From IMG/VR virus record IMGVR_UViG_3300046786_000521, positions 1-32,038 of that record: a stretch of DNA of 32,038 bases; one strand, given 5' to 3'. This document shows, in pieces, positions 1 to 32,038 of this stretch. The stretch is from a virus. Its lineage: Duplodnaviria > Caudoviricetes. Position numbers and translations under genes: made by a program. The notes beneath the pieces are model-generated. The model did no database searches, was not told the DNA's origin, and saw only the letters and a program-made list of their open reading frames with translations. Each line of letters starts with the position of its first letter. Positions within the stretch are counted from its first letter, which is position 1.

Positions 1-40
1 ATCAGTTTTATTAGATTAGGTTCTTACGTCTAATCATCTG

Positions 41-48
41 CAAATATA
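41..48 (-). promoter_or_regulatory. Bacteroidota-type -7 promoter box (TATATTTG), pointing out of the window
   Basis: Matches TAnnTTTG on the minus strand in an intergenic region; no clear -33 box. Confidence 0.5.
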
Positions 49-113
49 ATACTATTTTTAAAAAAAGCCACACCTTTCTCGAAAAACACTATGAAAAAAA
101 TAGGATAAGAACG

Positions 114-144
114 TTTGTAATTTGATGTGGCTTTTATATCTTTG
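114..144 (+). promoter_or_regulatory. Bacteroidota-type promoter, -33 TTTG and -7 TATCTTTG
   Basis: TTTG 114-117, 19-nt spacer, TATCTTTG 137-144. Confidence 0.65.
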
Positions 145-148
145 CACC

Positions 149-212
149 GATATACAAATTAATAACTTGTGTACGGTTTCTTTAGGGTAGGGGTGGTTCC
201 CTACCTTTTTTT
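149..212 (+). ncRNA. Candidate small RNA 1
   Basis: Promoter upstream; 5' hairpin TATACAA/TTGTGTA (151-157/167-173); terminator hairpin plus T7; no ORF. Confidence 0.45.
186..212 (+). terminator. Intrinsic terminator
   Basis: GGTAGGG-gtggtt-CCCTACC followed by TTTTTTT. Confidence 0.65.
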
Positions 213-455
213 ATTTAAGCGATATTCAGTTATGCGCGTCTTTTTACCATAATGCGTGATGTATGGCTTTGTTTCATACCCAATATCCCATCCGTCCTCA
301 ATCAAATCTTTAATCCTGCGCGGAGTGGCTGAATTAGATATAAATAGTTTTCGCATCGCATCTACTGTTGTAATGCGTTTGAACTTTTTTAGATAATTAA
401 GCAGTGCTTGCTTTTGTGTCGGATTGGCAATTTTGCCTTGATTGATTGGTTTCAT
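201..455 (-). CDS. Winged helix-turn-helix protein (HTH_39-like)
   Basis: TQKQALLNYL..ITTVDA..RRIKDL..GWDI..EYRL pattern typical of phage wHTH proteins. Confidence 0.7.
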   Translation of the reverse strand: MKPINQGKIANPTQKQALLNYLKKFKRITTVDAMRKLFISNSATPRRIKDLIEDGWDIGYETKPYITHYGKKTRITEYRLNKKR

Positions 456-585
456 TGGTTATTTTAGTTTTAGTGAGAAATAGTAGTTTTTGATCGTATC
501 GGTCATAATATTTTAGAACATCATATTCTTCCCAAGTCCATTCAAATTGCTTCCATAATTTCAATTGCTCTTGTTCCTGCGTCAT
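397..585 (-). CDS. Hypothetical protein (62 aa)
   Basis: ATG at 585 overlaps the exonuclease stop (ATGA coupling); overlaps the next gene by 59 nt. Confidence 0.5.
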   Translation of the reverse strand: MTQEQEQLKLWKQFEWTWEEYDVLKYYDRYDQKLLFLTKTKITNETNQSRQNCQSDTKASTA

Positions 586-1286
586 AATTCGATTGTTTGG
601 TAGAAATTTCGGCATTTCTCTATTTGCGTGATAAGATGTGCTATTTTGTTATCATCGTGGCTTATTTCGAATGTTTTAAGCCTTTTTTGAGCAGGAATAT
701 GACTGAATGTATGATTCTTTTCAATCTGCTCACAAATGCGCTGATATTCTTTATTATTCTCATCGCATCCGAACTTAAAAAAGTAACGCTTTTGTTCTTC
801 TTGGATAATTTCCAATGGTGTATCAATCAAAGCATAGCGCAATCGTGCTTTTGTTGCTCCTGTAAGCCACATATACCCACGTAACTGCCATTCATATATC
901 TTGGTCATTTCAGCCTCTGCATAGGATTTAATAGTGAATGAACATTTGGTATCTTCCACAATTGTTTCGCCATTGTCAGTAATTACCAAGTCAGGACTTC
1001 CCATAATATAATCATTCTTTAAGATACCACCTTTGAACTTCTCGCGGAAGATCCCATCATTGGCAACATCCTGAACTAATTGCATCGCATCCTGTTCGCA
1101 TAGCAATCCTTTGAGCATAGCATCAGTGACAACTATCTCATCGTAGCCATATTCATTCTTCAGCCAAATTTCTTTGATGTATGTCTTTGTAGTTTCGGAA
1201 AGCAATCCTGCTTCCTTATCAGCCTTTAATTTAGGCTCGGTCATTAATTTGCCCAATTGAGAGCAACGGAATAATACTTGATTCAT
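582..1286 (-). CDS. YqaJ/lambda-type PD-(D/E)xK exonuclease
   Basis: FRCSQLG, GSPD, EDTKC, YEWQLRGYMWLTG motifs; close to RecT; start set at the ATG after the CTACCACT leader. Confidence 0.8.
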   Translation of the reverse strand: MNQVLFRCSQLGKLMTEPKLKADKEAGLLSETTKTYIKEIWLKNEYGYDEIVVTDAMLKGLLCEQDAMQLVQDVANDGIFREKFKGGILKNDYIMGSPDLVITDNGETIVEDTKCSFTIKSYAEAEMTKIYEWQLRGYMWLTGATKARLRYALIDTPLEIIQEEQKRYFFKFGCDENNKEYQRICEQIEKNHTFSHIPAQKRLKTFEISHDDNKIAHLITQIEKCRNFYQTIEL

Positions 1287-1325
1287 AGTGGTAGTAGTGT
1301 TATTGGTCAGCAAATATGCAAGATA

Positions 1326-1547
1326 TTATTCAATAATTGTGCTTTTCAATTCAACTTTATTCCACATATCATTGTGGATAGTTAAGAATTCAACCCACGT
1401 ATCGTAGGTTTCCTGCGCTTTGCTGATTTCATTGGCATAAAATGGCTTTGATTCTTTACAATACCCATTTTCATCAAATAGGCGCACATAAATCCATTCT
1501 ACATTGTTAATGCCCGTTTCGCTTGATAGTGTTACTTTGTACTTCAT
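1326..1547 (-). CDS. Hypothetical protein
   Basis: 73-aa ORF preceded by the repeated leader motif. Confidence 0.7.
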   Translation of the reverse strand: MKYKVTLSSETGINNVEWIYVRLFDENGYCKESKPFYANEISKAQETYDTWVEFLTIHNDMWNKVELKSTIIE

Positions 1548-1639
1548 AGTGGTAGTTTTTATTTGTTTATTATTTACGTTTTTAGTGTTTTTGTTGATTT
1601 TAATCTACAAGTCAAGTTTTTGGAACCATTTACTTGACA

Positions 1640-2542
1640 TTATTTGTTTTTAGTTGGTTTCTTAGTCAATTCTTCCCTTCTCTCTTGGATAGCATCATAA
1701 CATCCATTCCCTACCGCAGTGTCCTCAAACGCATCTAATTCTTCTGCTGTGCCTAATTTCTTGATATGTGCAACAATGCGCTCACGTTCCTTGCGATTAT
1801 TGACTTCATCGATATCCATTGTGATTTTATCATTGTCAATGTATTCGACTTGATTTGTATCAGCATCCAATACCACTGCTTGATCGCTAATAACTGCCTT
1901 TTGCATTTCTACCGAAAGTGGAGCAAATTTGGATAGTAATAATTTAAGCACGGTTTTACTTGCCATTGCATCGAAATCATCCTTCCACAATCCATATCCT
2001 TTAGCAAATGTTTGGCTAAATTTCTTTCCGTGTGCAGTCAATTCCTCCGTTGACATAAACAAGGTGTTTTCTGCTCCATTAATAAGTTTAAAATAAGAAG
2101 CATATCCTACAATCTTGTCACTTGTTTTTTTGCTAAAATCGAACTTATATCCTGTTAATGGATTGGCTTCTATAATTTGTCCTTCATAAATCTTGGAAGA
2201 TGAAATAGTCAAAAATTGTCCTGAACGATAAGCTAATTGGATAAACGCCTTATATCCCATTTGAAACTGAGCAACCGTCTTATAACTTCCATCCTTTTGG
2301 CGTTGGTTGTAAGGTACAATATAGGCGAATCCAAGCGAATTATTCAATGGTAGGTCCAATGTAGCGGCTACTGCTGCTGATTGGTACACCGACATTGGTT
2401 CGGCTTTCTTTAATAAATCATTTGATGCGACAATCTGCAATACTGATGTAATAAATTGTGGCGCACGTTTGCCTAACATTTCTTTGAACTTATCCTGAAC
2501 GGACATTTGTGCAAAGAATTCTTTAGTAGTTAAATTTGACAT
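1640..2542 (-). CDS. recT: RecT-family single-strand annealing protein
   Basis: LGFAYIVPY, AQFQMGYKAFIQLAYRSG, W..DFDAMASKTVLKLLLSKFAPLS. Confidence 0.9.
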   Translation of the reverse strand: MSNLTTKEFFAQMSVQDKFKEMLGKRAPQFITSVLQIVASNDLLKKAEPMSVYQSAAVAATLDLPLNNSLGFAYIVPYNQRQKDGSYKTVAQFQMGYKAFIQLAYRSGQFLTISSSKIYEGQIIEANPLTGYKFDFSKKTSDKIVGYASYFKLINGAENTLFMSTEELTAHGKKFSQTFAKGYGLWKDDFDAMASKTVLKLLLSKFAPLSVEMQKAVISDQAVVLDADTNQVEYIDNDKITMDIDEVNNRKERERIVAHIKKLGTAEELDAFEDTAVGNGCYDAIQERREELTKKPTKNK

Positions 2543-2617
2543 AGTTGCTTGGTTTTGTTGGTGTAAAATTACAAATTAAGGATGGTATTTTGTGGGCAAA
2601 TTACCCACAGCATAGTG

Positions 2618-2842
2618 TTAACAAGTCATTGGAACATCCGTGTAATTAGTTGTTGAACCATCGCGATTGATTGAATGATGTAATCTTACTTTTGGTTTAT
2701 CCTGCGATACCTCTCTCCAATACTTTTTGCCATTGACAATATACCATTCCCATTTTCTTCCATTGCCCGGAATCAAGAAAGCATAGCGGAATGTTTCACT
2801 ATTTAATAATCGGTAGTAGATTAATTTGAATAATTTTTTCAT
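2618..2842 (-). CDS. Hypothetical protein
   Basis: 74-aa ORF, ATGA-coupled to the upstream gene. Confidence 0.65.
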   Translation of the reverse strand: MKKLFKLIYYRLLNSETFRYAFLIPGNGRKWEWYIVNGKKYWREVSQDKPKVRLHHSINRDGSTTNYTDVPMTC

Positions 2843-3024
2843 TGTTCGTCAATTTTAGAATTTAAAAAGTCAACTAAATGTTCGGTGTGGATTGCTCGGT
2901 TATTACTGAATTCACATCCGAATTTACGCAATTTTGCATATTGAACATAGAATGTAACCTGTACTTTCTTGTCATCATTGCTAACAGGCTTCCTTCCTCG
3001 TTTGATTGTTTTTGTTTTTGGCAT
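2839..3024 (-). CDS. Small putative DNA-binding protein (ribbon-helix-helix-like)
   Basis: RGRKP followed by a beta-strand-like KVQVTFYV. Confidence 0.5.
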   Translation of the reverse strand: MPKTKTIKRGRKPVSNDDKKVQVTFYVQYAKLRKFGCEFSNNRAIHTEHLVDFLNSKIDEQ

Positions 3025-3048
3025 TTGATTAGTTTTTGTCGGGAAGTG

Positions 3049-3099
3049 GTGGGGTAGTGTTATCTGCTAACTGCCTACCCCACATTCAACCGAGCAGAT
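3049..3099 (-). other. Structured intergenic RNA element (pseudoknot or alternative folds)
   Basis: GTGGGGTAG/CTACCCCAC 9-bp stem interleaved with ATCTGCT/AGCAGAT 7-bp stem. Confidence 0.45.
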
Positions 3100-3395
3100 T
3101 AGTTATTCCAATTATCTTCAGCAGTTTCAAGTAGTGTATTGCAGATAATATCGTGCATCAAACTATTTTTTAGCACTGAATCTGCTATGCTTATAAAATG
3201 GTTATCATGTTGTAATACTACATCGTGGATAGCTTCAATCTCGTAGTGGAATTCGATTGGAGTGAATAAGTCATCCTCATCGCGTTCCCATCCTTCAATT
3301 ACTTCTAATAATGTGTAAGTAACGAAGATTTCATAGCCATTGTCATCACTAATTGGGGAAGTGATTTTTTTCTCTTTGGTGATAGTTTTGCTCAT
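3099..3395 (-). CDS. Hypothetical acidic protein
   Basis: 98-aa ORF with an A/C-rich leader. Confidence 0.7.
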   Translation of the reverse strand: MSKTITKEKKITSPISDDNGYEIFVTYTLLEVIEGWERDEDDLFTPIEFHYEIEAIHDVVLQHDNHFISIADSVLKNSLMHDIICNTLLETAEDNWNN

Positions 3396-3409
3396 TGTAT
3401 TTGTTGGTT

Positions 3410-3643
3410 TTAATTAATTGAACAATCGATTGATAAAGTAGCGTAGTTTAAGCCTAATTGGTTGATCATAGCATCAATTAGTTGTCCTGAATAGGTGCGC
3501 TTTAAATCTACTTCTATTTGAAGCATATTAACGGATGCGTAGTTATGCTCGTGCCATTGACCATTTTCATCCATAACTTCAACTTGAACAGGAATACCTG
3601 CAATAAGATTTAATTCGATTTCGGTGTAGATGTTGTTTTTCAT
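3410..3643 (-). CDS. Hypothetical protein (77 aa)
   Basis: Start reassigned to the ATG inside the leader repeat. Confidence 0.7.
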   Translation of the reverse strand: MKNNIYTEIELNLIAGIPVQVEVMDENGQWHEHNYASVNMLQIEVDLKRTYSGQLIDAMINQLGLNYATLSIDCSIN

Positions 3644-3701
3644 TGTGGTAGGTTTTATTTGTTTATGTGCGTGATGGATGCGCACCCCCATTAAAATAAT
3701 A

Positions 3702-3977
3702 TTAATCAAACATTTCAATATGAGATGTATCAATTTTAAGTTCACTACAAGCATCAAATCCTTTATCAGTAAGCACCATCATAGGAGATTGTTTTTGCTC
3801 ATAAGCTCCATAATCAGAGCAGTCCCATACAAGACCTTTTTTTACTAAAGAACCTAAAGCTCCTTTTTCCTCGTTAGTAATGGCAAGTGCTGAAAAACAA
3901 GTGTAATTGCATTCATCTTGGCAGTTAGCTACTTTAGTAATTACTTTGATTTCTAATTGTGTTAAAATGTTTTTCAT
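3702..3977 (-). CDS. Hypothetical protein, winged-helix-like
   Basis: KGALGSLVKKGLV...LTDKG resembles a wHTH recognition helix and wing; starts in a leader repeat. Confidence 0.6.
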   Translation of the reverse strand: MKNILTQLEIKVITKVANCQDECNYTCFSALAITNEEKGALGSLVKKGLVWDCSDYGAYEQKQSPMMVLTDKGFDACSELKIDTSHIEMFD

Positions 3978-3988
3978 TGTGGTAGGTT

Positions 3989-4156
3989 TTAATTGTTATT
4001 GTTTATTTCGTCTAAAAATTTTGCTTTAATTAATTCTATATCTTCAATCCACATTTCTTTTGTTTCATTACTCAGTTTTGATAAATGTTCATTAAGGAAA
4101 TGAAATGCAGTGTTTATTACAATAATGTCATGTTTTGTTAATTCTACTTGTTTCAT
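3989..4156 (-). CDS. Hypothetical protein (55 aa)
   Basis: Start in one leader repeat, stop in the next. Confidence 0.65.
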   Translation of the reverse strand: MKQVELTKHDIIVINTAFHFLNEHLSKLSNETKEMWIEDIELIKAKFLDEINNNN

Positions 4157-4195
4157 TGTGGTAGGTTTTAATTGTTTTTTGATTGTTTGGTAGAA

Positions 4196-4226
4196 CAAAG
4201 ATATGGTGCGATTTTACATTTTGCAA
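4196..4226 (-). promoter_or_regulatory. Bacteroidota-type promoter for the small-gene and recombination operon
   Basis: TTG (4226-4224), 20-nt spacer, TATCTTTG (4203-4196). Confidence 0.7.
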
Positions 4227-4336
4227 GTTTTTTATGAATTATTTTTCACTTTTTTAATCAAATATGCCTCAAACATCGTCCTGTACGGCAAACTATTTTT
4301 TAAGAATAATAAAAAAATGGCACTATTTAAACGGAG

Positions 4337-4363
4337 AAAGGGGTGGACTAAAGCCAACCCCCC
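4337..4363 (-). terminator. Probable intrinsic terminator
   Basis: GGGGTTGG-ctttagt-CCACCCC-TTT after the HExxH gene. Confidence 0.5.
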
Positions 4364-4389
4364 ATAATAAAATACAAACCTCCGTATCT

Positions 4390-4689
4390 TTAAATCAAAT
4401 GTTCATCCTGCAAAGGAATTAAATCTCGATTATCTACTCGCCTGTAGCCTTGATCCCAAAGAATGCGCGTAATGGCTGTTGAAAGCCTAACAATGCCTTC
4501 TTCGTTCATTTCAGGCAACAAGATATGACAACTTTCGTGCGTTAGTATCTCCAAGTGTTTTTTGCCTATTATTCTGCTGTCAATCTCAATTGTATTTGTA
4601 GAATGGTCAGCAATGCCATAAGCCTTTTCTTTGCCTAATCTACGATATATTATCGTGATTTCATCCACTTGTTTCTTACGCTTTGCCAT
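4390..4689 (-). CDS. Small zincin-like metallopeptidase
   Basis: AYGIA..TIEID..ILTHESCH (HExxH)..EE. Confidence 0.7.
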   Translation of the reverse strand: MAKRKKQVDEITIIYRRLGKEKAYGIADHSTNTIEIDSRIIGKKHLEILTHESCHILLPEMNEEGIVRLSTAITRILWDQGYRRVDNRDLIPLQDEHLI

Positions 4690-4691
4690 AA

Positions 4692-5585
4692 CTATAAAGT
4701 TATAGTTTGCGTTCCATAAAACATCGCTTTCTTGATTAATTTTCGCGATTCATTTTCATCACGTACTTGTTCTACATTTACAAATACACCACCTAATGGC
4801 TTTGCAGGTCTGCCTTTCTCTATATGGAATCCTCCTTCCGTAAATTCTTGCTTATATGTAGAAGATTGAACCAATAATACCGAGCGCAATTTGGCACTAT
4901 TTGAACTTGGATTTGTATCAAGATAGTGCATCATTACTTCGGTGTTCGATTTCTCGTGGATGTGTCCTTGACTGATAATATCTGCACCTTCTACTGACAT
5001 CATATGACGCGACATAGATATCTGACCTCTCGTAACTGCTCCACCTCCACCATATCCGTGATGAAAATAAAGATTCAATGAATTTGCAACTTTATTACTA
5101 TTTGGTTCTAATACTTTAATCATCACCCATCCGTGATAACCCATAACAGGTACACCTGAATTTAACCCCCCTGCAAAACGCTCCAATACATCCGTTTCTA
5201 AATTCTTTAAGATGGCTGTTTCGTGATTACCATTGCCTAAAACCATATTTTTTGCATAGGGCTTATACCATTCAATGGCATCATTGATCACAGCATCCAA
5301 ATAATTGTGAACATTATGTTCAGGGCGAATATCTTTCTTGCTTCTACGTGGATCCCATTTACCCTGCATTAAGCAGAATGTATCTCCGGGCATTACAATC
5401 AATGCTTCCTGCGCTACGGCTTCATCAAGATGTTTTTTTAATAGTTTACGATCGCATTTAGGATTATCCCAATGTTGGTCAGGTGCGATAAAGATATTAA
5501 AGTCCTTTTCTCCTTTTTTTAGGTGTACGCGGACTTCGCAAACCATTTTGTTTAACTTCTTAATTTCGTAGCGTGGCATTGTCAA
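4692..5585 (-). CDS. Calcineurin-like metallophosphoesterase
   Basis: DxH (DQH), GD, GNHE, HHG, GHIH motifs in canonical order. Confidence 0.85.
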   Translation of the reverse strand: MTMPRYEIKKLNKMVCEVRVHLKKGEKDFNIFIAPDQHWDNPKCDRKLLKKHLDEAVAQEALIVMPGDTFCLMQGKWDPRRSKKDIRPEHNVHNYLDAVINDAIEWYKPYAKNMVLGNGNHETAILKNLETDVLERFAGGLNSGVPVMGYHGWVMIKVLEPNSNKVANSLNLYFHHGYGGGGAVTRGQISMSRHMMSVEGADIISQGHIHEKSNTEVMMHYLDTNPSSNSAKLRSVLLVQSSTYKQEFTEGGFHIEKGRPAKPLGGVFVNVEQVRDENESRKLIKKAMFYGTQTITL

Positions 5586-5968
5586 TTGTTTTGTATGAGC
5601 AGGAATATATGCCTATGATAGCCATCTAATTCACAATGCTCAAAATCAGAAAATGTAAATGGATAGTGTGTGATTTCTTTCTCCACACTCGTTATTTCTT
5701 CCATCTGCTTCCAATATTGAGCAAATGCAGGATTATCTTGTTTGATGATTATCTGCCCATTATCCTCCACGCCTAATTCCTTGACTAATTTGTCCGATTC
5801 AGAACGCACAAATTCCACGCTCGGCTTGATGCTTTGCAATAATTCGTTTAAATAATACTTTGTCTTGAATGGTAACTTATGCGCTAAAATTCCTTTGATT
5901 TGGTCGTTGCCTTCCAATTCAATTTGCAGTGCTAAGATTTGGTCTAATGTTAATTTGGTAGATTTCAT
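5582..5968 (-). CDS. Hypothetical helical protein (128 aa)
   Basis: Start reassigned to the ATG at 5968, downstream of the previous stop. Confidence 0.7.
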   Translation of the reverse strand: MKSTKLTLDQILALQIELEGNDQIKGILAHKLPFKTKYYLNELLQSIKPSVEFVRSESDKLVKELGVEDNGQIIIKQDNPAFAQYWKQMEEITSVEKEITHYPFTFSDFEHCELDGYHRHIFLLIQNN

Positions 5969-5972
5969 TAGA

Positions 5973-5980
5973 CAAATATA
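5973..5980 (-). promoter_or_regulatory. -7 promoter box TATATTTG
   Basis: TAnnTTTG 4 nt before the ATG at 5968. Confidence 0.5.
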
Positions 5981-5984
5981 AGAA

Positions 5985-6236
5985 TTATTCTGATTCCAAC
6001 AACTCTTTGATACGCGCTTCGGCTTGTTCATCGGTCCATTGACCTATGGCATCATATGCTTCGCCTTCCCATAATACAAGTTGTTTTGTAATTGGGTAAC
6101 CATTTTCATTATACGCTAATGTAACTTCAGTGATTACATTCTTATAGTCCTGGCTATCAATAATAGAAGAATAAAACACTACATCAGTAATGATTGCTGT
6201 TCTTGCTTCGATTGTTTTAGATAATTGTATTTGCAT
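5985..6236 (-). CDS. Hypothetical tail-fibre-associated protein (83 aa)
   Basis: ATG 1 nt after the fibre stop; LVLWEGEAYDAIGQWTD motif. Confidence 0.65.
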   Translation of the reverse strand: MQIQLSKTIEARTAIITDVVFYSSIIDSQDYKNVITEVTLAYNENGYPITKQLVLWEGEAYDAIGQWTDEQAEARIKELLESE

Positions 6237-6237
6237 T

Positions 6238-8046: not shown

Positions 8047-8050
8047 AGAA

Positions 8051-8058
8051 CAAAGTTA
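8051..8058 (-). promoter_or_regulatory. -7 promoter box TAACTTTG
   Basis: TAnnTTTG 4 nt before the fibre ATG. Confidence 0.5.
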
Positions 8059-8067
8059 CAAATTAGA

Positions 8068-8089: not shown

Positions 8090-8099
8090 AACTAATTCT

Positions 8100-8348: not shown

Positions 8349-8350
8349 AA

Positions 8351-23407: not shown

Positions 23408-25867
23408 TTATAGTTTATATCGGTTATCAATCACTCTGCGCTCACTGATGCCATTCATAATACGCGTTTCAAATCCTTTCTCATCAATGTTAACGCTTAC
23501 CTTTTGGCTATTCTTCAATTCCTCTCCTAAAGTACGCGCTAATTTCTTGTAATCAATATCCAATTTAGCAGATATATTTTGCTTAGTTACCGCATTCATA
23601 TTACGCAAGTTCATTGCAGGGATATTTGTCTTCAACAAAGCCTCCGTTAAATTGTTAGGAAGAATGATGCTATCAGCCTTCACGTGATCCAAAGTAGCAC
23701 GATTATACATCTTCATACTTCCATCACTATCTAATCGTAATTCGCGACCTGCTTCTCCAATGATCGCCATTCCTTCATAACCATCTAAGTTCTTACCTTT
23801 CGCGAACTTTGGAACAGGTTGTGAATCTATCACACGTACTTGTGTAGCAGTAGAAATAATAGAAGCGGCAGTCAAAATACCTGCTAATACAGGATTTGTA
23901 CCTCCATAAGATGCCCAAATATTAGTAATTGCTAATGCTCCATTAATAATGGCTTGTTTCTTCTTTGCATCTTGTTCTGCTTCCCACGCTTTCTTTTTTG
24001 CATCTGCTTCTAACTTATCATACTTGGTTTGAATTGCTAATTTCTGCGCTTCAGTTAAATTCTTATTCTTTAATTCATTTTCTTTTTGTGATTCTAACCT
24101 ATCTATATCCGCATCCAACTTTGCATCTCTATTTGCTTTATCAATCTCAAATTCTGCATTAGCAATTGTTTGAATCGAAGCAATAGCTTGGTCTTTAGCC
24201 GCTTGGCGATTTGCCTTTTCCATTTCTTGCTTACGAAGAATTGAATTGGCTAATGCTTGTTCATTGTCAGCATATACTTCTTGCATAAAATCAGCAAATT
24301 CTTTCTCAGCATCTTTATTTGCTTGTATCTTATCTCCTTCCAACTTTATTTGCTTCTTAATCCACTCAGATGTTTGCTTACTTAAATCATCTTGCGTCTT
24401 TTCAGTATTATCTGAAATTGTTTTATTTGCTTCAGCATTACTAAGTTTTAACTTGCCAAAATATTCTTCAGTTGAACCATTGGCTAATGCTAATTTATAC
24501 TGAGCATAAGCAGTTTGTGCCTCAATCAATTTGTTTTGTGTATCTTGATATTCTTTGCTTCCTTCCTTCATAGTAGTAAGCATTGTTTGATACATCAACA
24601 CATCCTTTTCATAGAAATCGTTTAATTCTTGTAATCTTTGTTCATTATCACGTTCTAATTGTTTCTTAGCATCTGCCTTTGCTTTATCACTAATATTCTT
24701 TCTAACACCTTCAATCTCTACTAATTTCTTATTATAATCTTCGCTTCCCTTTTCAAGAATACTTAATTCATCTTGCAAATATTTTAACTTGATAGCATTT
24801 ACATTTTTGCCCTGTGCTTCTGCTATATCAATTTGCAACTTTCTATCTTCAAGTCCTTTTTTAATCTTTAATTCTCTATCCTTTTCAGCATATCCTTCAT
24901 TGTAAGCAGTTGCAATATTTGCTCCAAAATTCTTAGCATCTTGAATCAATCCACTAATATCACCTGTGAATATATCGCCTAATATCTTTCCTAATCCTTT
25001 AAATCCTGCAACTACTGCATCAATCGCACCTGATGCAACTTGTCTAAAATTAGCAAAGAAATTAGTAACTGCTTGTAATTGAGGAAATGACTTATTAAGC
25101 CACCCAACAAATTCCTTCCAATTAGCCACTAACGCTCCGATTGCTAATACGATCAATCCAATACCTGTACTTGCTAATGCAATGCGGAATATCTTTAACG
25201 CTCCTGTGCTTTCTCCAACAACAAATGAATAGGCTTTTGTAGCATTAGTATTCAAAACTGTTGCTAAGTAACTATCCTTTAAATATGTTTCGTGTAATTG
25301 CTGAATACCATTAGAAATAGCCATCGCCGCGTTTACCTTTAACAATGCTTTCTCTACTTCCTTATTCTCCTTTCCAAATAATGCTGATGCACCTTGTACA
25401 ACGGAATAAGCAGATGCCATTGCACCTATTGCTTGGCTTACCGCCTTGATATATTTTGAATCATCCCCTAAAACACGAATACGATTGGATGTATCTCCGA
25501 TTTGATCGCTTAAATGACCTGCTCGTTCTGCCATTCGATTGAATTCTGCAGTGTTTGCCTTACCTGCATCCTCCATCTCTTGCAACTTATTCTTCAAATC
25601 GCGCAATTCAGCCTTCATTGATTGCTGTTTGCTTACGTTCTCCGTTATTGCTTGGCTATTTTCCTTGATGGATGTAGTTGCCTCATCAAATCCTTGTGAT
25701 ATAACATTCATCGGCATATTTTTTGCCGACTGACTTAATTTATCAATAGAGGAAGATGCTTCATTCGCACCTGTTGACAATTGCTCTAATCCTGAATTTT
25801 TTAATTGCCCTAATTTATCCTGCAACGGACCTAAATCGGCATCAAATTGTATCGTAACCTTCTCCAT
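23408..25867 (-). CDS. Tape measure protein
   Basis: 819 aa helical; ALASTGIGLIVLAIGALV hydrophobic block, coiled coils, PKFAKG..IIGEAGRE. Confidence 0.85.
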   Translation of the reverse strand: MEKVTIQFDADLGPLQDKLGQLKNSGLEQLSTGANEASSSIDKLSQSAKNMPMNVISQGFDEATTSIKENSQAITENVSKQQSMKAELRDLKNKLQEMEDAGKANTAEFNRMAERAGHLSDQIGDTSNRIRVLGDDSKYIKAVSQAIGAMASAYSVVQGASALFGKENKEVEKALLKVNAAMAISNGIQQLHETYLKDSYLATVLNTNATKAYSFVVGESTGALKIFRIALASTGIGLIVLAIGALVANWKEFVGWLNKSFPQLQAVTNFFANFRQVASGAIDAVVAGFKGLGKILGDIFTGDISGLIQDAKNFGANIATAYNEGYAEKDRELKIKKGLEDRKLQIDIAEAQGKNVNAIKLKYLQDELSILEKGSEDYNKKLVEIEGVRKNISDKAKADAKKQLERDNEQRLQELNDFYEKDVLMYQTMLTTMKEGSKEYQDTQNKLIEAQTAYAQYKLALANGSTEEYFGKLKLSNAEANKTISDNTEKTQDDLSKQTSEWIKKQIKLEGDKIQANKDAEKEFADFMQEVYADNEQALANSILRKQEMEKANRQAAKDQAIASIQTIANAEFEIDKANRDAKLDADIDRLESQKENELKNKNLTEAQKLAIQTKYDKLEADAKKKAWEAEQDAKKKQAIINGALAITNIWASYGGTNPVLAGILTAASIISTATQVRVIDSQPVPKFAKGKNLDGYEGMAIIGEAGRELRLDSDGSMKMYNRATLDHVKADSIILPNNLTEALLKTNIPAMNLRNMNAVTKQNISAKLDIDYKKLARTLGEELKNSQKVSVNIDEKGFETRIMNGISERRVIDNRYKL

Positions 25868-26647
25868 TATTGGAAGATTGTTTTGATTGATTTTGTGCTG
25901 TTATTATTACATCATTCCATTTGAAGTAATAATCGTCTATGGTAGTCCAATCGTGCAGTTCAGGACAATGTTTGGCTAAGGTTGTTATTGCTCTACGGAC
26001 TTCGTCTTCTGTTCGGATGACAAGTGCGAAAAAACTAACTGCGAGTTCTTCGCTAATTCCTCCGCTTGAATCGTCATCTCCATAATCTTCTGAAAATACT
26101 GTTGGGTATCTCCTGCGGATTGTTTCAAAAAGGGAACTAATTCCTGCACTTGCATTTGCAAAAAAAAATCATACATTGATGCGTTTTTCTTCCAAAATTC
26201 AATCTTTTTTTGATTATATCCGTGTTCGTAGTGCGTTGGACTTTCTGATTTGTCAAAGAATACCACACTCGCCAACTTATATATTAAGTCAGCGTCCGTG
26301 ATCATTGCCACGCGCTCCTTTAGGTTAATATCCAATTGTGCGGACTGATTCAACAAAGCAATGGTCTTATTCAGGTCCAACTTGTTGTTCTTTACGCTCA
26401 TTGAATCAATAATCTTCTGCCCTATGTTGGCTTTTGCATCACAAAAAGACATCAAGAAATCCCTATCGCAATTCATCTGCATTTCTCTAAAGAACGTAAT
26501 GGCTGTTAATCCTCTTTGGTAAGGTAGGTTAAATACATCATCGAATTGGTAGTATTCCACTCCACCACATACAAATGCTTTCTTAATCCTGAACTTGGAA
26601 GTAGGAACGGAAGCAAAGCGTAGTTTAAGTTTCTCAATAAAGTTCAT
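25842..26647 (-). CDS. Tail assembly chaperone, -1 frameshifted long form (about 268 aa)
   Basis: T9 run at 26168-26160; the -1 frame opens right after a TGA and runs 108 sense codons to the TGA at 25844-25842. Confidence 0.75.
25985..26647 (-). CDS. Tail assembly chaperone, short form
   Basis: Upstream of the tape measure; YDFFL slippery site. Confidence 0.7.
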   Translation of the reverse strand: MNFIEKLKLRFASVPTSKFRIKKAFVCGGVEYYQFDDVFNLPYQRGLTAITFFREMQMNCDRDFLMSFCDAKANIGQKIIDSMSVKNNKLDLNKTIALLNQSAQLDINLKERVAMITDADLIYKLASVVFFDKSESPTHYEHGYNQKKIEFWKKNASMYDFFLQMQVQELVPFLKQSAGDTQQYFQKIMEMTIQAEELAKNSQLVFSHLSSEQKTKSVEQ

Positions 26648-26650
26648 CGG

Positions 26651-26902
26651 TTATGGCGTTAGTTTTGTCAAAGATACATCAAATATTTCATTATTACCAC
26701 TCAAGGACCTTCTTCCGAATTTGTCATAATATGCCCACGCTTTCTTGGTTGGGTAAATCTTTAAAACGGATTTTGGTAGTTCAGGATGTTTATATCTACG
26801 TTCAAGATATCCCGGACAATAACACGAATGGAAATGCGTCCAACCCATTGTGAGCGCAAAATTGTGCATCTGCTCCCCTGTTTGTAGGTTAGAATTGATC
26901 AT
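26651..26902 (-). CDS. Hypothetical protein (83 aa) with a CxC motif
   Basis: Start reassigned to the ATG at 26902; HSCYCPG. Confidence 0.6.
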   Translation of the reverse strand: MINSNLQTGEQMHNFALTMGWTHFHSCYCPGYLERRYKHPELPKSVLKIYPTKKAWAYYDKFGRRSLSGNNEIFDVSLTKLTP

Positions 26903-27173
26903 AGGTTTTGTTAATAAGTCCGTTGAGAATTGCATTGCATCCAATGACGCAAGGGAAATAAAGCACGTTTGTGTAATCATTGGTAATGAAGATTAACCCT
27001 GTTGCACCCCAAAAACCACCCATACATACCAAACAATCGAATAATGGACTGCTCACGTAATGTGGTAGCATTGAACGGAATATGTTGCCGATACATCCTA
27101 AAAGGAAGCCATCGCGGAATACCATATTAACCCCTGTGCAAAATAGCGAGATGGTGATTATTGCTTGTAACAT
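26889..27173 (-). CDS. Membrane protein with CxxC (DUF1360-like)
   Basis: About three hydrophobic segments; LFDCLVCMGGFW. Confidence 0.65.
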   Translation of the reverse strand: MLQAIITISLFCTGVNMVFRDGFLLGCIGNIFRSMLPHYVSSPLFDCLVCMGGFWGATGLIFITNDYTNVLYFPCVIGCNAILNGLINKTYDQF

Positions 27174-27174
27174 A

Positions 27175-27546
27175 TTAATCGCCTATGATAGTTGCAGGTG
27201 GAACCACTCCTTCATAATGTTGGAATGATAATAGAACGCATTGTGTTAATACAACCCCAACATAAAAGTTAAATGGAGTTAAATATTGCGTATTTAAGAC
27301 GCGCATCTTGAACATCCCACTATGCTGTGTGAATAATCCTTCAGGAATATCTGCATTACCTAAAATAGGAATGTGAATCAATCCTGCTGTTGGATATGGT
27401 TGCTCAATCAATGTAGTATAAACATTGTCGAATTTATCGGTGAATTCGATTAGGTAATCTAATGATTCATCTAATCCGCTCCACTTCATTGAAATGAATT
27501 CAGGGCAGGATGGTAATGTGTACGTAACGCATTCTAAACAGGACAT
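27175..27546 (-). CDS. Hypothetical beta-rich protein with N-terminal CxxC
   Basis: MSCLECV..PSCP; promoter box directly upstream. Confidence 0.7.
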   Translation of the reverse strand: MSCLECVTYTLPSCPEFISMKWSGLDESLDYLIEFTDKFDNVYTTLIEQPYPTAGLIHIPILGNADIPEGLFTQHSGMFKMRVLNTQYLTPFNFYVGVVLTQCVLLSFQHYEGVVPPATIIGD

Positions 27547-27563
27547 AATGGAAAATTTTAGTA

Positions 27564-27610
27564 CAAATATACTTATTCACACCAATTAGTGGAAAATAAT
27601 TGTATTTTTG
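27564..27610. promoter_or_regulatory. Back-to-back -7 boxes
   Basis: Minus TATATTTG 27571-27564; plus TATTTTTG 27603-27610; no clear -33 boxes. Confidence 0.5.
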
Positions 27611-27614
27611 TTAC

Positions 27615-27685
27615 GCATTGCGGGGTGGTAGCCGTAGTGGTTGGTTATTGGGAAAGGGGGTGCAGAAATGTGCCTCCTTTTTTTT
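27615..27685 (+). ncRNA. Candidate small RNA 2
   Basis: -7 box upstream, G/U-rich body, plus-strand-specific terminator. Confidence 0.5.
27656..27685 (+). terminator. Intrinsic terminator with a GAAA tetraloop
   Basis: GGGGGTGCA-GAAA-TGTGCCTCC-T8; its three G-U pairs form only on the plus strand. Confidence 0.7.
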
Positions 27686-28925
27686 ATTTAGCCTTTAGGA
27701 ACCATCCCATAAAACTATTGCACCAATATCTGAACGTATCTAACGCATCGGCTTGTTGTGTTGCATCTGCACGATTGCTTTTTTCAATCTTGCCATCCTC
27801 ACTGATTTTCACGTTTTTAAGGTCATAAATCAGTGCTTTTGCCTTTTTATCTTGGATTTGTACCCCATAATTGGCTAACAAACTATTAACTAATACCTGA
27901 TTCTCTTGAATTGGTGGATTTATGATTGGCTGACGCATTTGTCCACTTCCTAAACGCAATCGGGTACGAATAACTGTATAATAGTTCAAATTGTCCTTGA
28001 CTAATGCTGATGTGTTTCGTCCTGTAGCATCCCCTGTGACAATGTATAGACAATTTGGGTAGTATGATAGGATGTAATCACATAGTGCGTAAATGTCGGA
28101 ATTTTCGAGTTTGATAGTTTCCAATACCCATATGGTCCTATCGTAATGTTGGACAACACTACACGAAATGGGATTCTTGTTAAAGTCAAATGATAGGTAA
28201 ACAGGCTCATTCTTATTAAGGTTGATTGGTTGATCAGTAACGTGCTTTTTGCTATCAAATGCAAATGCCCACAGCATTCCTTTCAAGTCCACATCCTCTG
28301 CCAAATATTCGCAACGGAAATATAAATCACTCATTGTTCGCTTGGCAGAATCTACCTCGCTTGATAGAATATGCGGATTGTCATAAGTTGTAAATGTCCA
28401 CGATTGCCATTCGTGGCTGAAATCAGGATTATCTCGCAAATGATATAGTTCTTTGAAATAGGTATCGCCAAATTTAGGGGTAGACAAGAACCACGCATCC
28501 CCTACATAGTCGGTTAGTGTCGCACGGATGGTACCATTCCACGCTTGTTCCAACTTACGCGCCTTTTCGCACTCATCAATCACCACGCGTTTGTACTTTC
28601 TACCTCGTCCACTATCAGGCTCATCCAATGACCACATATCAATAACTCCACCTGTGATCAATCGGATTTGTTTCAACTGCTCATTCTTAGATGCAATAAC
28701 TTCATAGCACGTTTCGGTTATTACGCGCCAAAAGTCCGCTAAGTCCTTGTAAGTTGGGGAATAGTATGCAACAGGGAAGCCATCTAAAGCAGGCTCAATG
28801 ATTAGTTCTTCTGCTAATGATGTTTTCCCAAATCTTCGACCACATTTTAGTACATTGAAACGCTTGGCAGTTTGAATGATGTGTTCCTGATTAACGTGCC
28901 TACTTTTTAATTTGACTGTCTTCAC
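27684..28925 (-). CDS. terL: Terminase large subunit
   Basis: Walker A GRRFGKT, Walker B VVIDE, LSTP coupling motif, SFDFN and DALD..RY nuclease motifs. Confidence 0.93.
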   Translation of the reverse strand: MKTVKLKSRHVNQEHIIQTAKRFNVLKCGRRFGKTSLAEELIIEPALDGFPVAYYSPTYKDLADFWRVITETCYEVIASKNEQLKQIRLITGGVIDMWSLDEPDSGRGRKYKRVVIDECEKARKLEQAWNGTIRATLTDYVGDAWFLSTPKFGDTYFKELYHLRDNPDFSHEWQSWTFTTYDNPHILSSEVDSAKRTMSDLYFRCEYLAEDVDLKGMLWAFAFDSKKHVTDQPINLNKNEPVYLSFDFNKNPISCSVVQHYDRTIWVLETIKLENSDIYALCDYILSYYPNCLYIVTGDATGRNTSALVKDNLNYYTVIRTRLRLGSGQMRQPIINPPIQENQVLVNSLLANYGVQIQDKKAKALIYDLKNVKISEDGKIEKSNRADATQQADALDTFRYWCNSFMGWFLKAK

Positions 28926-29175
28926 GAATTACTACAATTTTGTTATCGGTTACTGAAACATCGTTTTTCATCTCGGTAGGTATTAGTTTCGATGCTATCT
29001 TGTAGAATTCGGTAGTGTTTTCTTTTGCCCAAGTAGTTAGATTTGCTCTTGGATCATCCTGAAGTTCAGACATAGTAGTTTGTACCATCTCTTTGAACTC
29101 CCTTGTTAATTTGCTGACTGCGCCTTTCGGTCTGCCTCCACGATTAATCGGTTGACCTTCTCCAAATTTTGCCAT
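28900..29175 (-). CDS. terS: Terminase small subunit
   Basis: KFG.G...GGRPKG N-terminus; overlaps the terL start. Confidence 0.7.
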   Translation of the reverse strand: MAKFGEGQPINRGGRPKGAVSKLTREFKEMVQTTMSELQDDPRANLTTWAKENTTEFYKIASKLIPTEMKNDVSVTDNKIVVIREDSQIKK

Positions 29176-29198
29176 AATTAGCCGTTTTTTTTCAGTTT

Positions 29199-29591
29199 TT
29201 AAGTGGTTAGGTAGTTATCCACAACTTCTCTAAATTCATCGAATGAATGACATATTTTACATTCATAACCCAAAGATAGCATTTTTTCCATAAAGTGAAC
29301 CTGTGATAAGGTTGGCTTTCCTTCAGGAGATTTCATTTCTATAAATAATCCTGCAAATTTGCTATTAGGTTTTGGCATAAATAGGTCACTTACCCCTGCA
29401 AGCAGTCCTTCATCCTTTAACCTAACTGCTTCAATTACGTTTCTGCTTCCTCCGTTAGGGATGGAGAAGATAATCAATTGCGGATAGGCAAAACGGAACC
29501 AACGCACACAATTCTTTTGAATATCGGATTCGTGGTGCTTAATTTTCTTTTTAGCAGGTGCTTCAGTGCTTTTATACTTATTCCAAGTCAT
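29199..29591 (-). CDS. VRR-NUC domain nuclease
   Basis: ESDIQ, IPNGG.R, GVSDL, FIEMK, Q..F motifs. Confidence 0.88.
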   Translation of the reverse strand: MTWNKYKSTEAPAKKKIKHHESDIQKNCVRWFRFAYPQLIIFSIPNGGSRNVIEAVRLKDEGLLAGVSDLFMPKPNSKFAGLFIEMKSPEGKPTLSQVHFMEKMLSLGYECKICHSFDEFREVVDNYLTT

Positions 29592-29683
29592 TAATCGTCA
29601 TTTAGGGATTTAAACAATAGGATTAGTCCAATAATTAGTAACACGGTGCTAAATTCTAATAAGATTACGATTTGATTATCCAT
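29591..29683 (-). CDS. Single-TM micro-protein, 30 aa (MDNQIVILLEFSTVLLIIGLILLFKSLNDD)
   Basis: Overlaps the endolysin stop and is TAATG-coupled to VRR-NUC; not in the ORF track. Confidence 0.55.
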   Translation of the reverse strand: MDNQIVILLEFSTVLLIIGLILLFKSLNDD

Positions 29684-30164
29684 AGATTGCTTTCCATACG
29701 TTAGGGGTGTATTTGACATAGGTCATCTTACCTAATAAATTGCGCTTGGCTACCCATACCTCCTTTCGGTTAGGCTTAGCTGATGTGTAGGAGCAATGAA
29801 TCCATTTAGGCTGTCCATTCAGGTAATCTTCAGCAATCAATTGATCAAATTCAACATTATTCAATAGGAATAGGAATAATTCCTTGTTTGATTTTCCATT
29901 GGTCATCACTAAATCCAATGCTTCGCCTTTTATATGTTGGCTTGTTGGTTCTCCACCTATGGCTGAATTCAATTTTGGGCAACGATAACCACTACTGATA
30001 ATTATTGGAACACCAAAATGCTCTCTTGCAGGTTCAAATATCTTTTGTGCAGTGACTAACAAATTGGCTAACGCTTCCTTTGTAGGGGTGTTATCAATTC
30101 CTTTGCGCAATGCTGTACCGCTATGCGTCAATTCTGCGAGTGATAAGTGAGTGCTTATTTGCAT
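29676..30164 (-). CDS. Peptidase M15 family endolysin
   Basis: SSGYRC..LN..IGG...SQH..GEALD and WIHCS zinc-binding motifs. Confidence 0.88.
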   Translation of the reverse strand: MQISTHLSLAELTHSGTALRKGIDNTPTKEALANLLVTAQKIFEPAREHFGVPIIISSGYRCPKLNSAIGGEPTSQHIKGEALDLVMTNGKSNKELFLFLLNNVEFDQLIAEDYLNGQPKWIHCSYTSAKPNRKEVWVAKRNLLGKMTYVKYTPNVWKAIYG

Positions 30165-30183
30165 TTTAGTGTCATTTAATACT

Positions 30184-30191
30184 CAAAAGTA
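30184..30191 (-). promoter_or_regulatory. -7 promoter box TACTTTTG
   Basis: TAnnTTTG in the gap upstream of the endolysin. Confidence 0.45.
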
Positions 30192-30210
30192 GTGGTTTTT
30201 GTGCGTTTTA

Positions 30211-30813
30211 TTACCATTTGCCCTCTTTTACTTCATAAAATCCAACTTTATACTTGATTTGCTCATTGTATAGGCGAATTGCATCTTGCTCATCCTCAAT
30301 TACCCAACCTAAATTCAGAAATCTAACGCAATCATCACAATTGCAAGGTGACTTATCACGATAGACGCGCTTCCATATGCGTTGCAAAAACCAATCCATT
30401 GGAAGAATCTCCAATCCTTTCTTGTTTTCTAATGGATGGGTAGTCATTTCTGACTTCATCATCTCTGACCTGTACTTTTTTAGATATCCTGCCATATATT
30501 CACGCATATATTGGTTGCGCTTTTCCTTGCGGATATTGGCTGATTCTTCTTGCGTTTGAACAACTACATCTTCAGATGATGTTTTTTCTGCCTTTTTAAT
30601 GCTTTTACGCTTCTTAAAGATTTCTGACGATAAAATGTACTCTACTTCTCCATTCTTGCGTCTAATCGGATAAAAAGTGCTTCTGCTGCTATCGTACATC
30701 ATATTCACCTTGATGTACATTGTGTCCTTCAGCACATACAATCGCTTTTCTTCATAATTAATGAAGTAATTGTGCATTGTTTCAAAATCAAATGTTTTTG
30801 GTTCGTAGTTCAT
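30211..30813 (-). CDS. Hypothetical protein
   Basis: 200-aa basic ORF; RNQYMREYM and CNCDDC motifs. Confidence 0.7.
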   Translation of the reverse strand: MNYEPKTFDFETMHNYFINYEEKRLYVLKDTMYIKVNMMYDSSRSTFYPIRRKNGEVEYILSSEIFKKRKSIKKAEKTSSEDVVVQTQEESANIRKEKRNQYMREYMAGYLKKYRSEMMKSEMTTHPLENKKGLEILPMDWFLQRIWKRVYRDKSPCNCDDCVRFLNLGWVIEDEQDAIRLYNEQIKYKVGFYEVKEGKW

Positions 30814-30829
30814 ATTATTGGTCGGTTGA

Positions 30830-31771
30830 TTAAAAAAGTTTGGTTTGATTTAATAATGGTTGTATGCGCTTATTGGCAATTTTGATATATTCTTCACTCA
30901 TTTCACTACCGATAAATTGTCTATTGGCTCTGATGGATGCAATGGCTGTGCTTCCACTACCCATAAACGGATCATAAATAATCCCACCTTCAGGACATCC
31001 TGCTAAAATTGGTTTACGGATTAATTCATCATTATATTGGGCGTAATGTTTTTCTCCGCTTGGTTTGGTCTGAATATCCCAAAAATCTGCTACATCGCCC
31101 GGATTTTTACCTAATGGATTACAAAATCTATCACCCATTTTATCTGCATCAATTTCACCTATTGAATCGTGATTGGATTTCCAACCATATTCAATTCTTT
31201 GGATAGACGAATCTTTATGTTTACCTCTAACTGCATCCAAATCAAAATAATATTTTTTAGATTTTACCATAAAAAAGAAATATTCGTGCTTTTTAGTAAA
31301 TCTATCAGTTACAGGTTCAGGCATTCCATTTCTTTTTGCCCAAATAATATCATTTCTAACTATCCATCCGCGATCAATACATCCAATAGCAAATCTATGA
31401 GGAATTAAAATCAAACATTTATCTAAAAATCCTTTTTGTCCACCTCTGCCTGCTTTAGTTCCTGTTGAAACAATTGGTTGATCATTATATTTATTTTTCC
31501 TATCACCTGCCCAACCTGAATTATTATATGTATCTCCTAAATTAATCCATACTGTTCCTGATGGTTTTAATACGCGATATATTTCATCCATCATTTCCCA
31601 AAGATGTTCAAGATATTCTTTGAATGTTGGCTCTAATCCCCATTGACCTTCATATCCATAATCACGCAGTTGCCAATAAGGTGGTGATGAAATAACACAA
31701 TCAATGGAATTATCTTCCATTTTTCTCAATGTTTCAAGACACGGTTCTTGGTAAATTTTGTTTAGTTGCAT
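30830..31771 (-). CDS. DNA amino-methyltransferase (N4-C/N6-A, beta class)
   Basis: SPPY catalytic motif before the DPFMGSGST SAM-binding motif. Confidence 0.92.
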   Translation of the reverse strand: MQLNKIYQEPCLETLRKMEDNSIDCVISSPPYWQLRDYGYEGQWGLEPTFKEYLEHLWEMMDEIYRVLKPSGTVWINLGDTYNNSGWAGDRKNKYNDQPIVSTGTKAGRGGQKGFLDKCLILIPHRFAIGCIDRGWIVRNDIIWAKRNGMPEPVTDRFTKKHEYFFFMVKSKKYYFDLDAVRGKHKDSSIQRIEYGWKSNHDSIGEIDADKMGDRFCNPLGKNPGDVADFWDIQTKPSGEKHYAQYNDELIRKPILAGCPEGGIIYDPFMGSGSTAIASIRANRQFIGSEMSEEYIKIANKRIQPLLNQTKLF

Positions 31772-31780
31772 TTTGTTCGG

Positions 31781-32038
31781 TTATTTGTTTAAGTAAGAAA
31801 ATATGTGAGCAATGACATCAATTGTCCATCCATTGCCAAGCATTTTATGTGCTTGTGTTTTACTAATAATATTAGTATATCCTTCTTTTACCGTTTGAAG
31901 TTTCTCTACTTCATCTCTTTCAAGCATTCTTATTTTATCTTTTGTCTTGTTTAAATAATAGTTTTTTGAATGATTTTTAGCAGTTGTTAAACAATTAGAT
32001 TTGGATTCATAAATACTTTTAAGTTGATTCAATTTTAT
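31781..32038 (-). CDS. DNA cytosine-C5 methyltransferase, C-terminal part (cut by the window edge)
   Basis: IRML...EVEKLQT and KMLGNGWTIDVIAHIF resemble C5-MTase motifs IX and X. Confidence 0.75.
   Translation of the reverse strand: MKLNQLKSIYESKSNCLTTAKNHSKNYYLNKTKDKIRMLERDEVEKLQTVKEGYTNIISKTQAHKMLGNGWTIDVIAHIFSYLNK

Follow-up and report, generated by a model that had tools for sequence, protein, structure and literature searches.

Can a phage escape two sequence-specific host defences at once when a dipeptide in its own proteins must spell the target of one or the other? The question is raised by a 32,038-nucleotide stretch of a tailed virus (Duplodnaviria; Caudoviricetes), IMG/VR record IMGVR_UViG_3300046786_000521, hereafter called the window. 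The tetramers CCAG/CTGG and CTAG have nearly disappeared from it, and CCGG survives only in codons for Pro-Gly, which must contain either CCAG/CTGG or CCGG. Sister phages write the same dipeptide the other way and carry CCAG in a single DNA orientation, and the strains have probably faced at least two separate host defences.

CCAG/CTGG, CTAG and CCGG in the window

An exhaustive count gave no CCAG, one CTGG (position 6150), no CTAG and 16 CCGG, each CCGG being an in-frame Pro-Gly. These numbers agree exactly with an earlier reading made by eye from the letters alone (the sequence-only reading), including the coordinates of all 16 CCGG and of the single CCAG/CTGG at 6150-6153. In the 47 curated genes of the window, the 16 Pro-Gly dipeptides are written CCG (12) or CCC (4), again as that reading had seen, although Pro codons overall are CCT 154, CCA 148, CCG 41 and CCC 7. 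The sequence-only reading had expected roughly a hundred of each class. This holds for CCAG/CTGG (129-136 expected) and for CTAG by base composition (109), but is too high for CTAG by dinucleotides (61) and for CCGG (35-38).

Codon-shuffled null models, which that reading had named among its checks, put all three words below expectation. Synonymous-codon shuffles (n = 300) gave 126 ± 9 CCAG/CTGG (lowest 104), 47 CTAG (lowest 30) and 29 CCGG (lowest 17), and shuffles that kept the codon junction still expected 82, 17 and 26, respectively. Avoidable CCGG, outside Pro-Gly, numbered 0 against 26.8 expected (lowest 16 in 500 shuffles), and the shuffles expected CCG or CCC at only 2.2 of the 16 Pro-Gly dipeptides, with a maximum of 6. 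Before G[ACT]N, all 78 Pro codons of the window are CCT. Codon, dinucleotide or junction bias is ruled out as the cause by these expectations and shuffles. EcoRII, Dcm and DISARM II (defence island system associated with restriction-modification) are CCWGG systems. Avoidance of CCWGG alone is ruled out as well: CCAGA, CCAGC and CCAGT are each at 0, the sole survivor is itself a CCWGG, and CCTG/CAGG is over-represented (236 vs 142 expected). The sequence-only reading had held that either bias or CCWGG would undo its claim; neither held.

Other words are depleted too, among them (observed/expected) CATG 3/76, AGCT 12/94, GGCC 3/28 and the longer words ACAGA 2/60, AGACT 0/28, GAGAC 0/17 and GCWGC 4/18, so that the window represents a heavily site-depleted phage. 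Selection by a sequence-specific host defence, as the sequence-only reading proposed, is thus supported. Its view of CCGG as the least harmful word is also supported for this strain, in line with the 78 CCT codons.

Sister phages make the opposite Pro-Gly choice and keep CCAG in one orientation

Sisters were found by scans with the terminase and RecT; scans with the capsid and tail genes returned the G002 contig alone. Identity to the window is 91.8% for G002 (28,459 aligned bases), 90.3% for G001 (11,301), 94.6% for L101 (3,582) and 91.8% for L043 (1,889). Two further contigs, L042 and L045, are at distance 0.000 from G002 and come from its strain, and we did not treat them as separate evidence. 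Pro-Gly is written CCA-GG at 18/18 positions in G002 and 8/8 in G001, and never CCT-GG, though the codons CCA and CCT are similarly frequent overall. G002 has a single CCGG, and the Pro-Gly codons of L101 are two CCA and one CCG. At each Pro-Gly that the window shares with G002, G001, L042/L045 or L101, its CCG or CCC corresponds to CCA-GG in the sister.

On the sense-oriented strand, the ratio of CCAG to CTGG is 40:0 in G002, 22:0 in G001 and 7:0 in L101 (binomial 3.9e-12 and 5.6e-7). A palindromic site confers no polarity, and the 40:0 of the sisters therefore contradicts a single CYRG site, which predicts equal avoidance of both orientations. Sites are instead tolerated in one DNA orientation irrespective of gene direction in G002, G001 and L101, as expected of a Type III target. 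The word also has an adenine on one strand only, another Type III feature, shared by the word RAGGC described below. Only 40 CCAG stand on the allowed strand of G002 against 70 expected; this shortfall fits a residual cost of direct repeats, part of it being a separate loss of CCAGA.

Does the polarity belong to the DNA or to the messenger? Of the 40 sites in G002, 36 fall in co-directional genes, whose messenger has CCAG, three fall in genes transcribed in the opposite direction, including thyX, whose messenger has CUGG, and one is intergenic (Fisher 1e-4; 1.4e-3 once a site in a gene overlap is dropped). Since CUGG occurs in the opposite-strand genes and CCAG in the co-directional ones, polarity follows the DNA strand and not the mRNA. 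Avoidance of CUGG at the RNA level, through an mRNA interferase or a codon-pair effect, would suit genomes in which most genes lie on one strand and sense-strand CTGG is 0, as in the window, G002, G001 and L101. Yet in G002 the mRNAs of thyX and of one or two more opposite-strand genes contain CUGG and lack CCAG, and the window has lost sense CCAG as well; we regard this explanation as highly improbable.

A side observation concerns G001 (L188, 11784-13994), where a 737-amino-acid gene that includes a methyltransferase domain has been inserted in front of RecT. It carries all four CTAG of the contig, as would fit a recent acquisition, yet its three CCAG keep the orientation of the genome.

Loss of CCAG in the lineage of the window and polymorphism among strains

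All 36 aligned CCAG of G002 are lost in the window, compared with losses of 17-32% for nine control tetramers. They became CCAA (11), CCGG (10, Pro-Gly), CCTG (5), CCCG (3, Pro-Gly) and others. Seven of the lost sites were not CCAGG, so that the pressure acted on the tetramer. In the VRR-NUC gene, a Pro-Glu of the window (29324) is a Pro-Gly written CCAGG in the sisters and in two distant relatives, which makes the window the derived state there. The window thus likely derives from an ancestor with one-way CCAG.

These fates also bear on very-short-patch repair tied to a CCGG methyltransferase, which would convert CTGG to CCGG and CTAG to CTGG in the absence of selection. It is a published explanation of CTAG scarcity (PMC4687349), it would account for the ten Pro-Gly sites that went from CCAG to CCGG, and at four unrelated loci of the survey below (L051, L078, L125, L130) CCAG is absent or rare and CCGG is in excess. 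Against it, none of the 36 aligned sites was converted to CCGG outside Pro-Gly, where CCAA, CCTG and others arose, avoidable CCGG is 0, and the four CCC-GG and the polarity are left unexplained. For the lineage of the window this repair is refuted by the fates of the lost CCAG, and we give it almost no credence there; for the CCGG-rich loci it is still a candidate.

Contigs from other samples showed that the Pro-Gly state is real and polymorphic, with both states and a mixed strain present. The strain comparison was made without runs X1 and X2, which may be the sample that yielded the window, and for run X3 it covers zero-difference pieces only, which equal the window over 13727-14041 and 16773-17100. 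Within 12040-12620, the Pro-Gly codons at 12307 and 12586 are CCG and CCG in run X17 (depth 4.8) and CCA and CCA in run X4, and runs X6 and X11, which have identical listed differences, combine CCG at 12307 with CCA at 12586. Each CCAG regained at these two positions has the orientation seen in the sisters.

Other one-way words and the surroundings of CCAG

CCAG is accompanied by other words with complete polarity, and it is on these that one-way use can be judged in the window, which keeps a single CCAG/CTGG. Among 54,416 motifs tested, RAGGC stands at 50:0 in the window (25 GCCTY expected), GMGGT at 31:0 (22 expected in the missing orientation) and AAGTMT at 24:0 (18 expected); the first two are common to G002. 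GAGGY, at 36:0 (15 expected), overlaps RAGGC and GMGGT. In view of the overlaps among the four words, the true motifs may be AAGGC, GAGGY and GCGGT. One GCCTT falls in an opposite-strand gene.

Base differences around the CCAG of the sisters gave a further lead. Differences between the window and G002 within 40 bp of a CCAG favour G/C in G002 (95:42, z 3.4, first of 166 words, the lowest word being at -3.2), and this halo decays by about 80 bp. A three-way split assigned it to loss of G/C in the lineage of the window (14:3 near vs 96:83 far, p 0.038). G001 shows the halo weakly and L101 the opposite, and a third-position codon-residual test detected no C excess around CCAG. We treat it as a lead only.

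Both observations touch on a reading in which CCAG/CTGG is the strand-specific target of another class of system, such as a 4-bp nicking enzyme, Type ISP, a BREX (bacteriophage exclusion)- or MANTIS-like defence, or a one-strand factor acting at injection or during rolling-circle replication, with CCGG and CTAG as separate targets. The polarity data for CCAG suit it equally, classical Type III and MANTIS sites are longer than 4 bp, and a weak G+C excess near the sister CCAG would fit a patch left by nicking and repair. However, the adenines of CCAG and RAGGC lie on the retained strand and that of GCGGT on the other, so that no single strand rule applies, and the predicted repair patch is weak in one sister, reversed in another and invisible in the codon-usage test. 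We consider this reading rather unlikely.

The three words dissociate across phage loci

After removal of 34 of 120 loci for redundancy, of 16 duplicates or overlapping sister loci, and of everything shorter than 7 kb, we surveyed 86 non-redundant phage loci. No word is purged in 41 of them, CTAG only in 29, CCGG only in 5, CTAG and CCGG in 5, and CCAG and CTAG in 6. CCGG is thus purged without CCAG in 10 loci, and CCAG without CCGG in five besides the window. The six loci purged of CCAG and CTAG that keep CCGG are the window (at Pro-Gly only), L051, L078, L125, L130 and L155. The member words of CYRG are not lost together but in five different combinations; CCAG, CTAG and CCGG vary largely independently. 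CTAG scarcity is generic in prokaryotes, being found in 55.4% of control pairs (PMC4687349). All six CCAG-purged loci also lack CTAG, which leaves room for a CYAG target, CTAG being its own inverted pair. Five of the 86 loci, three of them from the present clade, have 4- or 5-mers with complete one-way orientation.

The survey weighs on the single degenerate palindrome proposed by the sequence-only reading, here widened to one enzyme for CYRG, with CCWGG or CCSGG shielded by overlapping methylation. All four member words are purged within the window, 30 of the 40 CCAG of G002 lie inside CCWGG, and 6/6 CCAG-purged loci are free of CTAG, as one target would have it. On the other side, CCA-GG and CCT-GG form the same double-stranded CCWGG, yet the sisters use CCA 26 times out of 26, and the five other loci without CCAG/CTGG have normal or enriched CCGG (0/0/122 in L130, 0/0/28 in L051). 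No publication naming such a site turned up in a search that mostly excluded subscription literature. Given the strand polarity of the sisters and this dissociation, the single site is very unlikely, and the fallback offered in the sequence-only reading, several overlapping sites, is the better one.

Two groups of loci stood out in their own right. In L051, L078, L125 and L130, CCAG/CTGG and CTAG are near zero with an approximately 2- to 9-fold excess of CCGG (L130, 0/0/0/122), which could reflect a funnel resembling very-short-patch repair or compensation. In L124, L126 and L078, the listed NCAG/CTGN tetramers are scarce (in L126, ACAG 1/30, GCAG 5/26 and TCAG 4/23) and CCGG is enriched, an apparent purge of the trimer CAG/CTG.

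Phage methyltransferases do not predict the Pro-Gly state

The window encodes an N4/N6 and a C5 DNA methyltransferase (Table 1), and the sequence-only reading had suggested that one of the two protects CCGG. In L042/L045, an N4/N6 homologue about 74% identical (row P0069, matched by protein length) stands with no C5 gene at that place. L001 has a C5 gene with 72% identity across its N-terminal 260 amino acids and a different variable region, and no N4/N6 gene at that place. Both write Pro-Gly as CCA-GG. Since either gene occurs in sisters of this type, methyltransferase presence does not predict the Pro-Gly state and lends the suggestion no support. A search for the specificities through homologues, structures and family models returned nothing informative.

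Protection specific to the alleles of the window is a candidate addition to the two-defence explanation; such alleles might protect CCGG and so free Pro-Gly for CCG or CCC and permit the loss of every CCAG. In its favour, the window has both genes, a combination seen in no sister at that place, and a C5 variable region unlike that of L001. However, CCGG still looks costly (0 avoidable against 27, and CCT before every G[ACT]N), both gene families occur in CCA-GG sisters, and a strain with mixed Pro-Gly states exists. As avoidable CCGG is still 0, protection would be incomplete at best, and we find this addition unlikely.

The slot after the primase-helicase behaves as a swap cassette, with C5 only (L001, 6872-9253), N4/N6 only (L042, 2162-4314) or both (window, 30169-32038). 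The endolysin is exchanged in L001 too, for a different 182-amino-acid protein.

At least two probable host defences and a forced choice at Pro-Gly

The explanation that we hold to be moderately probable is that these phages face at least two separate host defences, one with an asymmetric CCAG (possibly CYAG) target that is predicted, by analogy with Type III systems, to be cut best as facing pairs, and another with a palindromic CCGG target. At Pro-Gly, each strain would take the cheaper word. Writing every Pro-Gly with CCA would leave no CCGG and only co-oriented CCAG, a cheaper solution where a CCGG cutter dominates, and the use of CCA but never CCT in the sisters would keep all sites co-oriented. 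Writing every Pro-Gly with CCG or CCC, of which the window would be the extreme, would leave no CCAG and would pay where same-orientation CCAG is costly, or where CCGG is rarely cut or is protected. Co-oriented CCAG could be costly if direct repeats were still restricted or if an orientation-blind CCAG enzyme were around. CTAG might then be missing either because, within CYAG, it forms an inverted pair with itself, or because this word is widely avoided in general.

Several points weigh against this explanation. All genomes are partial (G001 and G002 at 43-57%). The 3-kb L043 is an exception to the polarity, with a ratio of 2:1 and one CCTGG in the opposite orientation, and the opposite-strand control amounts to 2-3 sites in one strain. 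The sister trees are star-like with 60-68% support, so that the derived state of the window rests on parsimony and one outgroup-shared Pro-Gly. A strict inverted-pair enzyme leaves the loss of co-oriented sites unexplained, and the model must add graded restriction or another enzyme that is blind to orientation. No CCAG-specific host enzyme was identified. Biochemically characterised Type III sites have 5-6 bp, not 4 (PMC3874151), a phage survey reports no systematic strand-asymmetric avoidance of Type III sites (PMC6286503), and the accessible text of a study on Helicobacter pylori does not state the type of its CCAG enzyme (PMC10689673). In the window, CCAG is purged in all four 3' contexts, which does not match a site of 5-6 bp. 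Four-bp Type III motifs are known from long-read methylomes. Given the usual site length, the lack of an identified enzyme and the negative survey, the pattern works like a Type III strand-bias escape, but the system behind it cannot be filed as Type III. In favour of the explanation, homologues of Type III Res were detected in 21/301 Chitinophagales genomes, four of them over the cut-off, and a Lake Biwa bin of the Chitinophagaceae encodes mod and res of Type III as well as a GGCC system (PMC6329791).

A bolder version, which we offer as speculative and think unlikely to be right in full, is that an unnamed defence widespread in freshwater Bacteroidota, distinct from classical Type III, recognises CCAG (or CYAG) and is most active on facing pairs, the phages tracking it strain by strain through the Pro-Gly codon switch. 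Such a defence could be nickase-based or BREX-related, for example, and might leave a short G+C patch around surviving sites. If true, Pro-Gly codons would read out which defence the host of a strain carries.

With regard to the preferred two-defence explanation, the case would offer a readout, from sequence alone, of the defences in the hosts of a strain. For this uncultured pair, the predicted host targets are CCAG/CYAG, RAGGC, GMGGT and AAGTMT in one orientation, and CTAG, CCGG, CATG, AGCT, GGCC and GCWGC in both. It also carries a caution: a degenerate consensus taken from a single genome can merge unrelated targets.

Genes, occurrence and likely host

The window is a 32-kb partial genome of a tailed phage, in which PHROGs and Pfam recognised a terminase, portal, tape measure, endolysin, RecT, exonuclease, thyX and two DNA methyltransferases; terminal repeats were looked for in it and none was found. 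The phage is present in freshwater, estuary and other aquatic metagenome runs. Features that bear on the analysis are collected in Table 1.

Table 1. Position of the words, codons and genes discussed in the text
Feature	Position	Strand	Remark
Lone remaining CCAG, inside CCAGG (Ser-Gln)	6150..6153	-	Orientation of the sisters; absent at the matching place in G002 and G001
16 CCGG, all in-frame Pro-Gly	2767, 5386, 9637, 11156, 11584, 12073, 12307, 12586, 16612, 16977, 20051, 20513, 22439, 22615, 26812, 31099	-	Span 2767..31102
One-way words RAGGC, GMGGT, AAGTMT, GAGGY	435..30594	-	Also in sisters
Pro-Glu (CCT-GAA) in VRR-NUC gene	29324..29329	-	Pro-Gly CCA-GG in G002, G001, L042/L045 and the distant L044 and L074
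Putative major capsid and scaffold genes (named from position and size)	12040..12620	-	Pro-Gly codons polymorphic among close strains
Oppositely transcribed block: thyX and four small genes	13900..15800	+	Internal control for DNA-strand versus mRNA polarity
Portal protein gene	16693-18540	-	PHROGs
Terminase large subunit	27684..28925	-	PHROGs; served as bait for relatives
N4/N6 DNA methyltransferase	30830..31771	-	PF01555, SPPY motif; homologue in CCA-GG sister L042/L045
C5 methyltransferase, C-terminal 85 amino acids (full-length P0121, 313 amino acids)	31781..32038	-	Variable region unlike that of the C5 gene of L001

The host is probably a member of the Chitinophagales, the sole order searched. 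The single match of the terminase in the genome collection is a Chitinophagales metagenome-assembled genome (51%), and a 237-kb contig of a Chitinophagales genome carries a syntenic portal, glycosyltransferase-like gene, tape measure, terminase and N4/N6 methyltransferase. For the right 18.6 kb of the window, no exact spacer-length match was found in 401 genomes of this order, 24 of which gave short matches of 68-91%. In a look for cultured relatives, terminase matches in the phage collection were all below 60% identity (about 31% for the top rows).

Other observations concern single genes. The portal has an inserted segment at residues 301-334 that resembles a zinc finger (CxxC...CxxC), with an Anti-TRAP match below the cut-off. 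Directly after the portal lies a 294-amino-acid gene (18543-19427, minus strand) with a DxD-like motif and no Pfam, PHROG or NCBIfam match; its Atlas neighbours at 0.98 are viral clusters resembling nucleotide-diphospho-sugar transferases, and a homologue (35%) also adjoins the portal homologue in a Chitinophagales prophage region. It is a candidate virion glycosyltransferase. Contigs of runs X4, X5 and X6 pass over an 89-bp intergenic stretch (15332-15422), which also falls within an alignment gap against G002 and looks like an insertion specific to the window.

Comparison with known systems

The closest precedent is phage T7, whose 36 EcoP15 sites all have one orientation (PMC3874151). The two cases are alike in that an asymmetric site is one-way throughout the genome and close relatives differ, as T7 and T3 do with respect to EcoP15I (PMC3874151). 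Unlike there, the word here is 4 bp long, with about 65 expected per strand, and is joined by several further one-way words; one lineage has cleared both strands of it, and Pro-Gly ties the choice to a second site.

Near-complete loss of CTAG, CCGG, CATG, AGCT and GGCC agrees with the avoidance described in double-stranded DNA phages by Rusinov et al. 2018 (PMC6286503). Avoidance there was found mainly at orthodox Type II sites, whereas the strongest signal here comes from an asymmetric tetramer. MANTIS/Gao_RL resembles the present case in its hemimethylated asymmetric site and strand-biased depletion in phages, and MANTIS restricts inverted pairs better than direct repeats (10.64898/2026.09.23.753747). 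Its sites have 6 bp and were studied in Pseudomonas; CCAG does not have this length, and AAGTMT at 24:0 would fit it.

CCAG itself is a real asymmetric 4-bp methylation target, as demonstrated by knockout of the CCAG-specific methyltransferase hp0944 of Helicobacter pylori A45, and is also reported in T. phaeum (PMC10689673). This enzyme comes from another phylum, and the accessible part of that paper describes no partner nuclease, orientation rule or phage avoidance. Our literature search, mostly confined to papers outside subscription, returned no report of CYRG, of phages with one-way CCAG or of a trade-off at Pro-Gly.

Site avoidance and escape by orientation are already known, and the contribution of this case is the reciprocal switch at the population level combined with complete polarity of a tetramer. 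Avoidance in one orientation, known from T7 yet reported as non-systematic, is complete here for a tetramer, and the trade-off is played out at a dipeptide that is unable to dodge both targets, with strains 90-97% identical standing at either extreme or in between.

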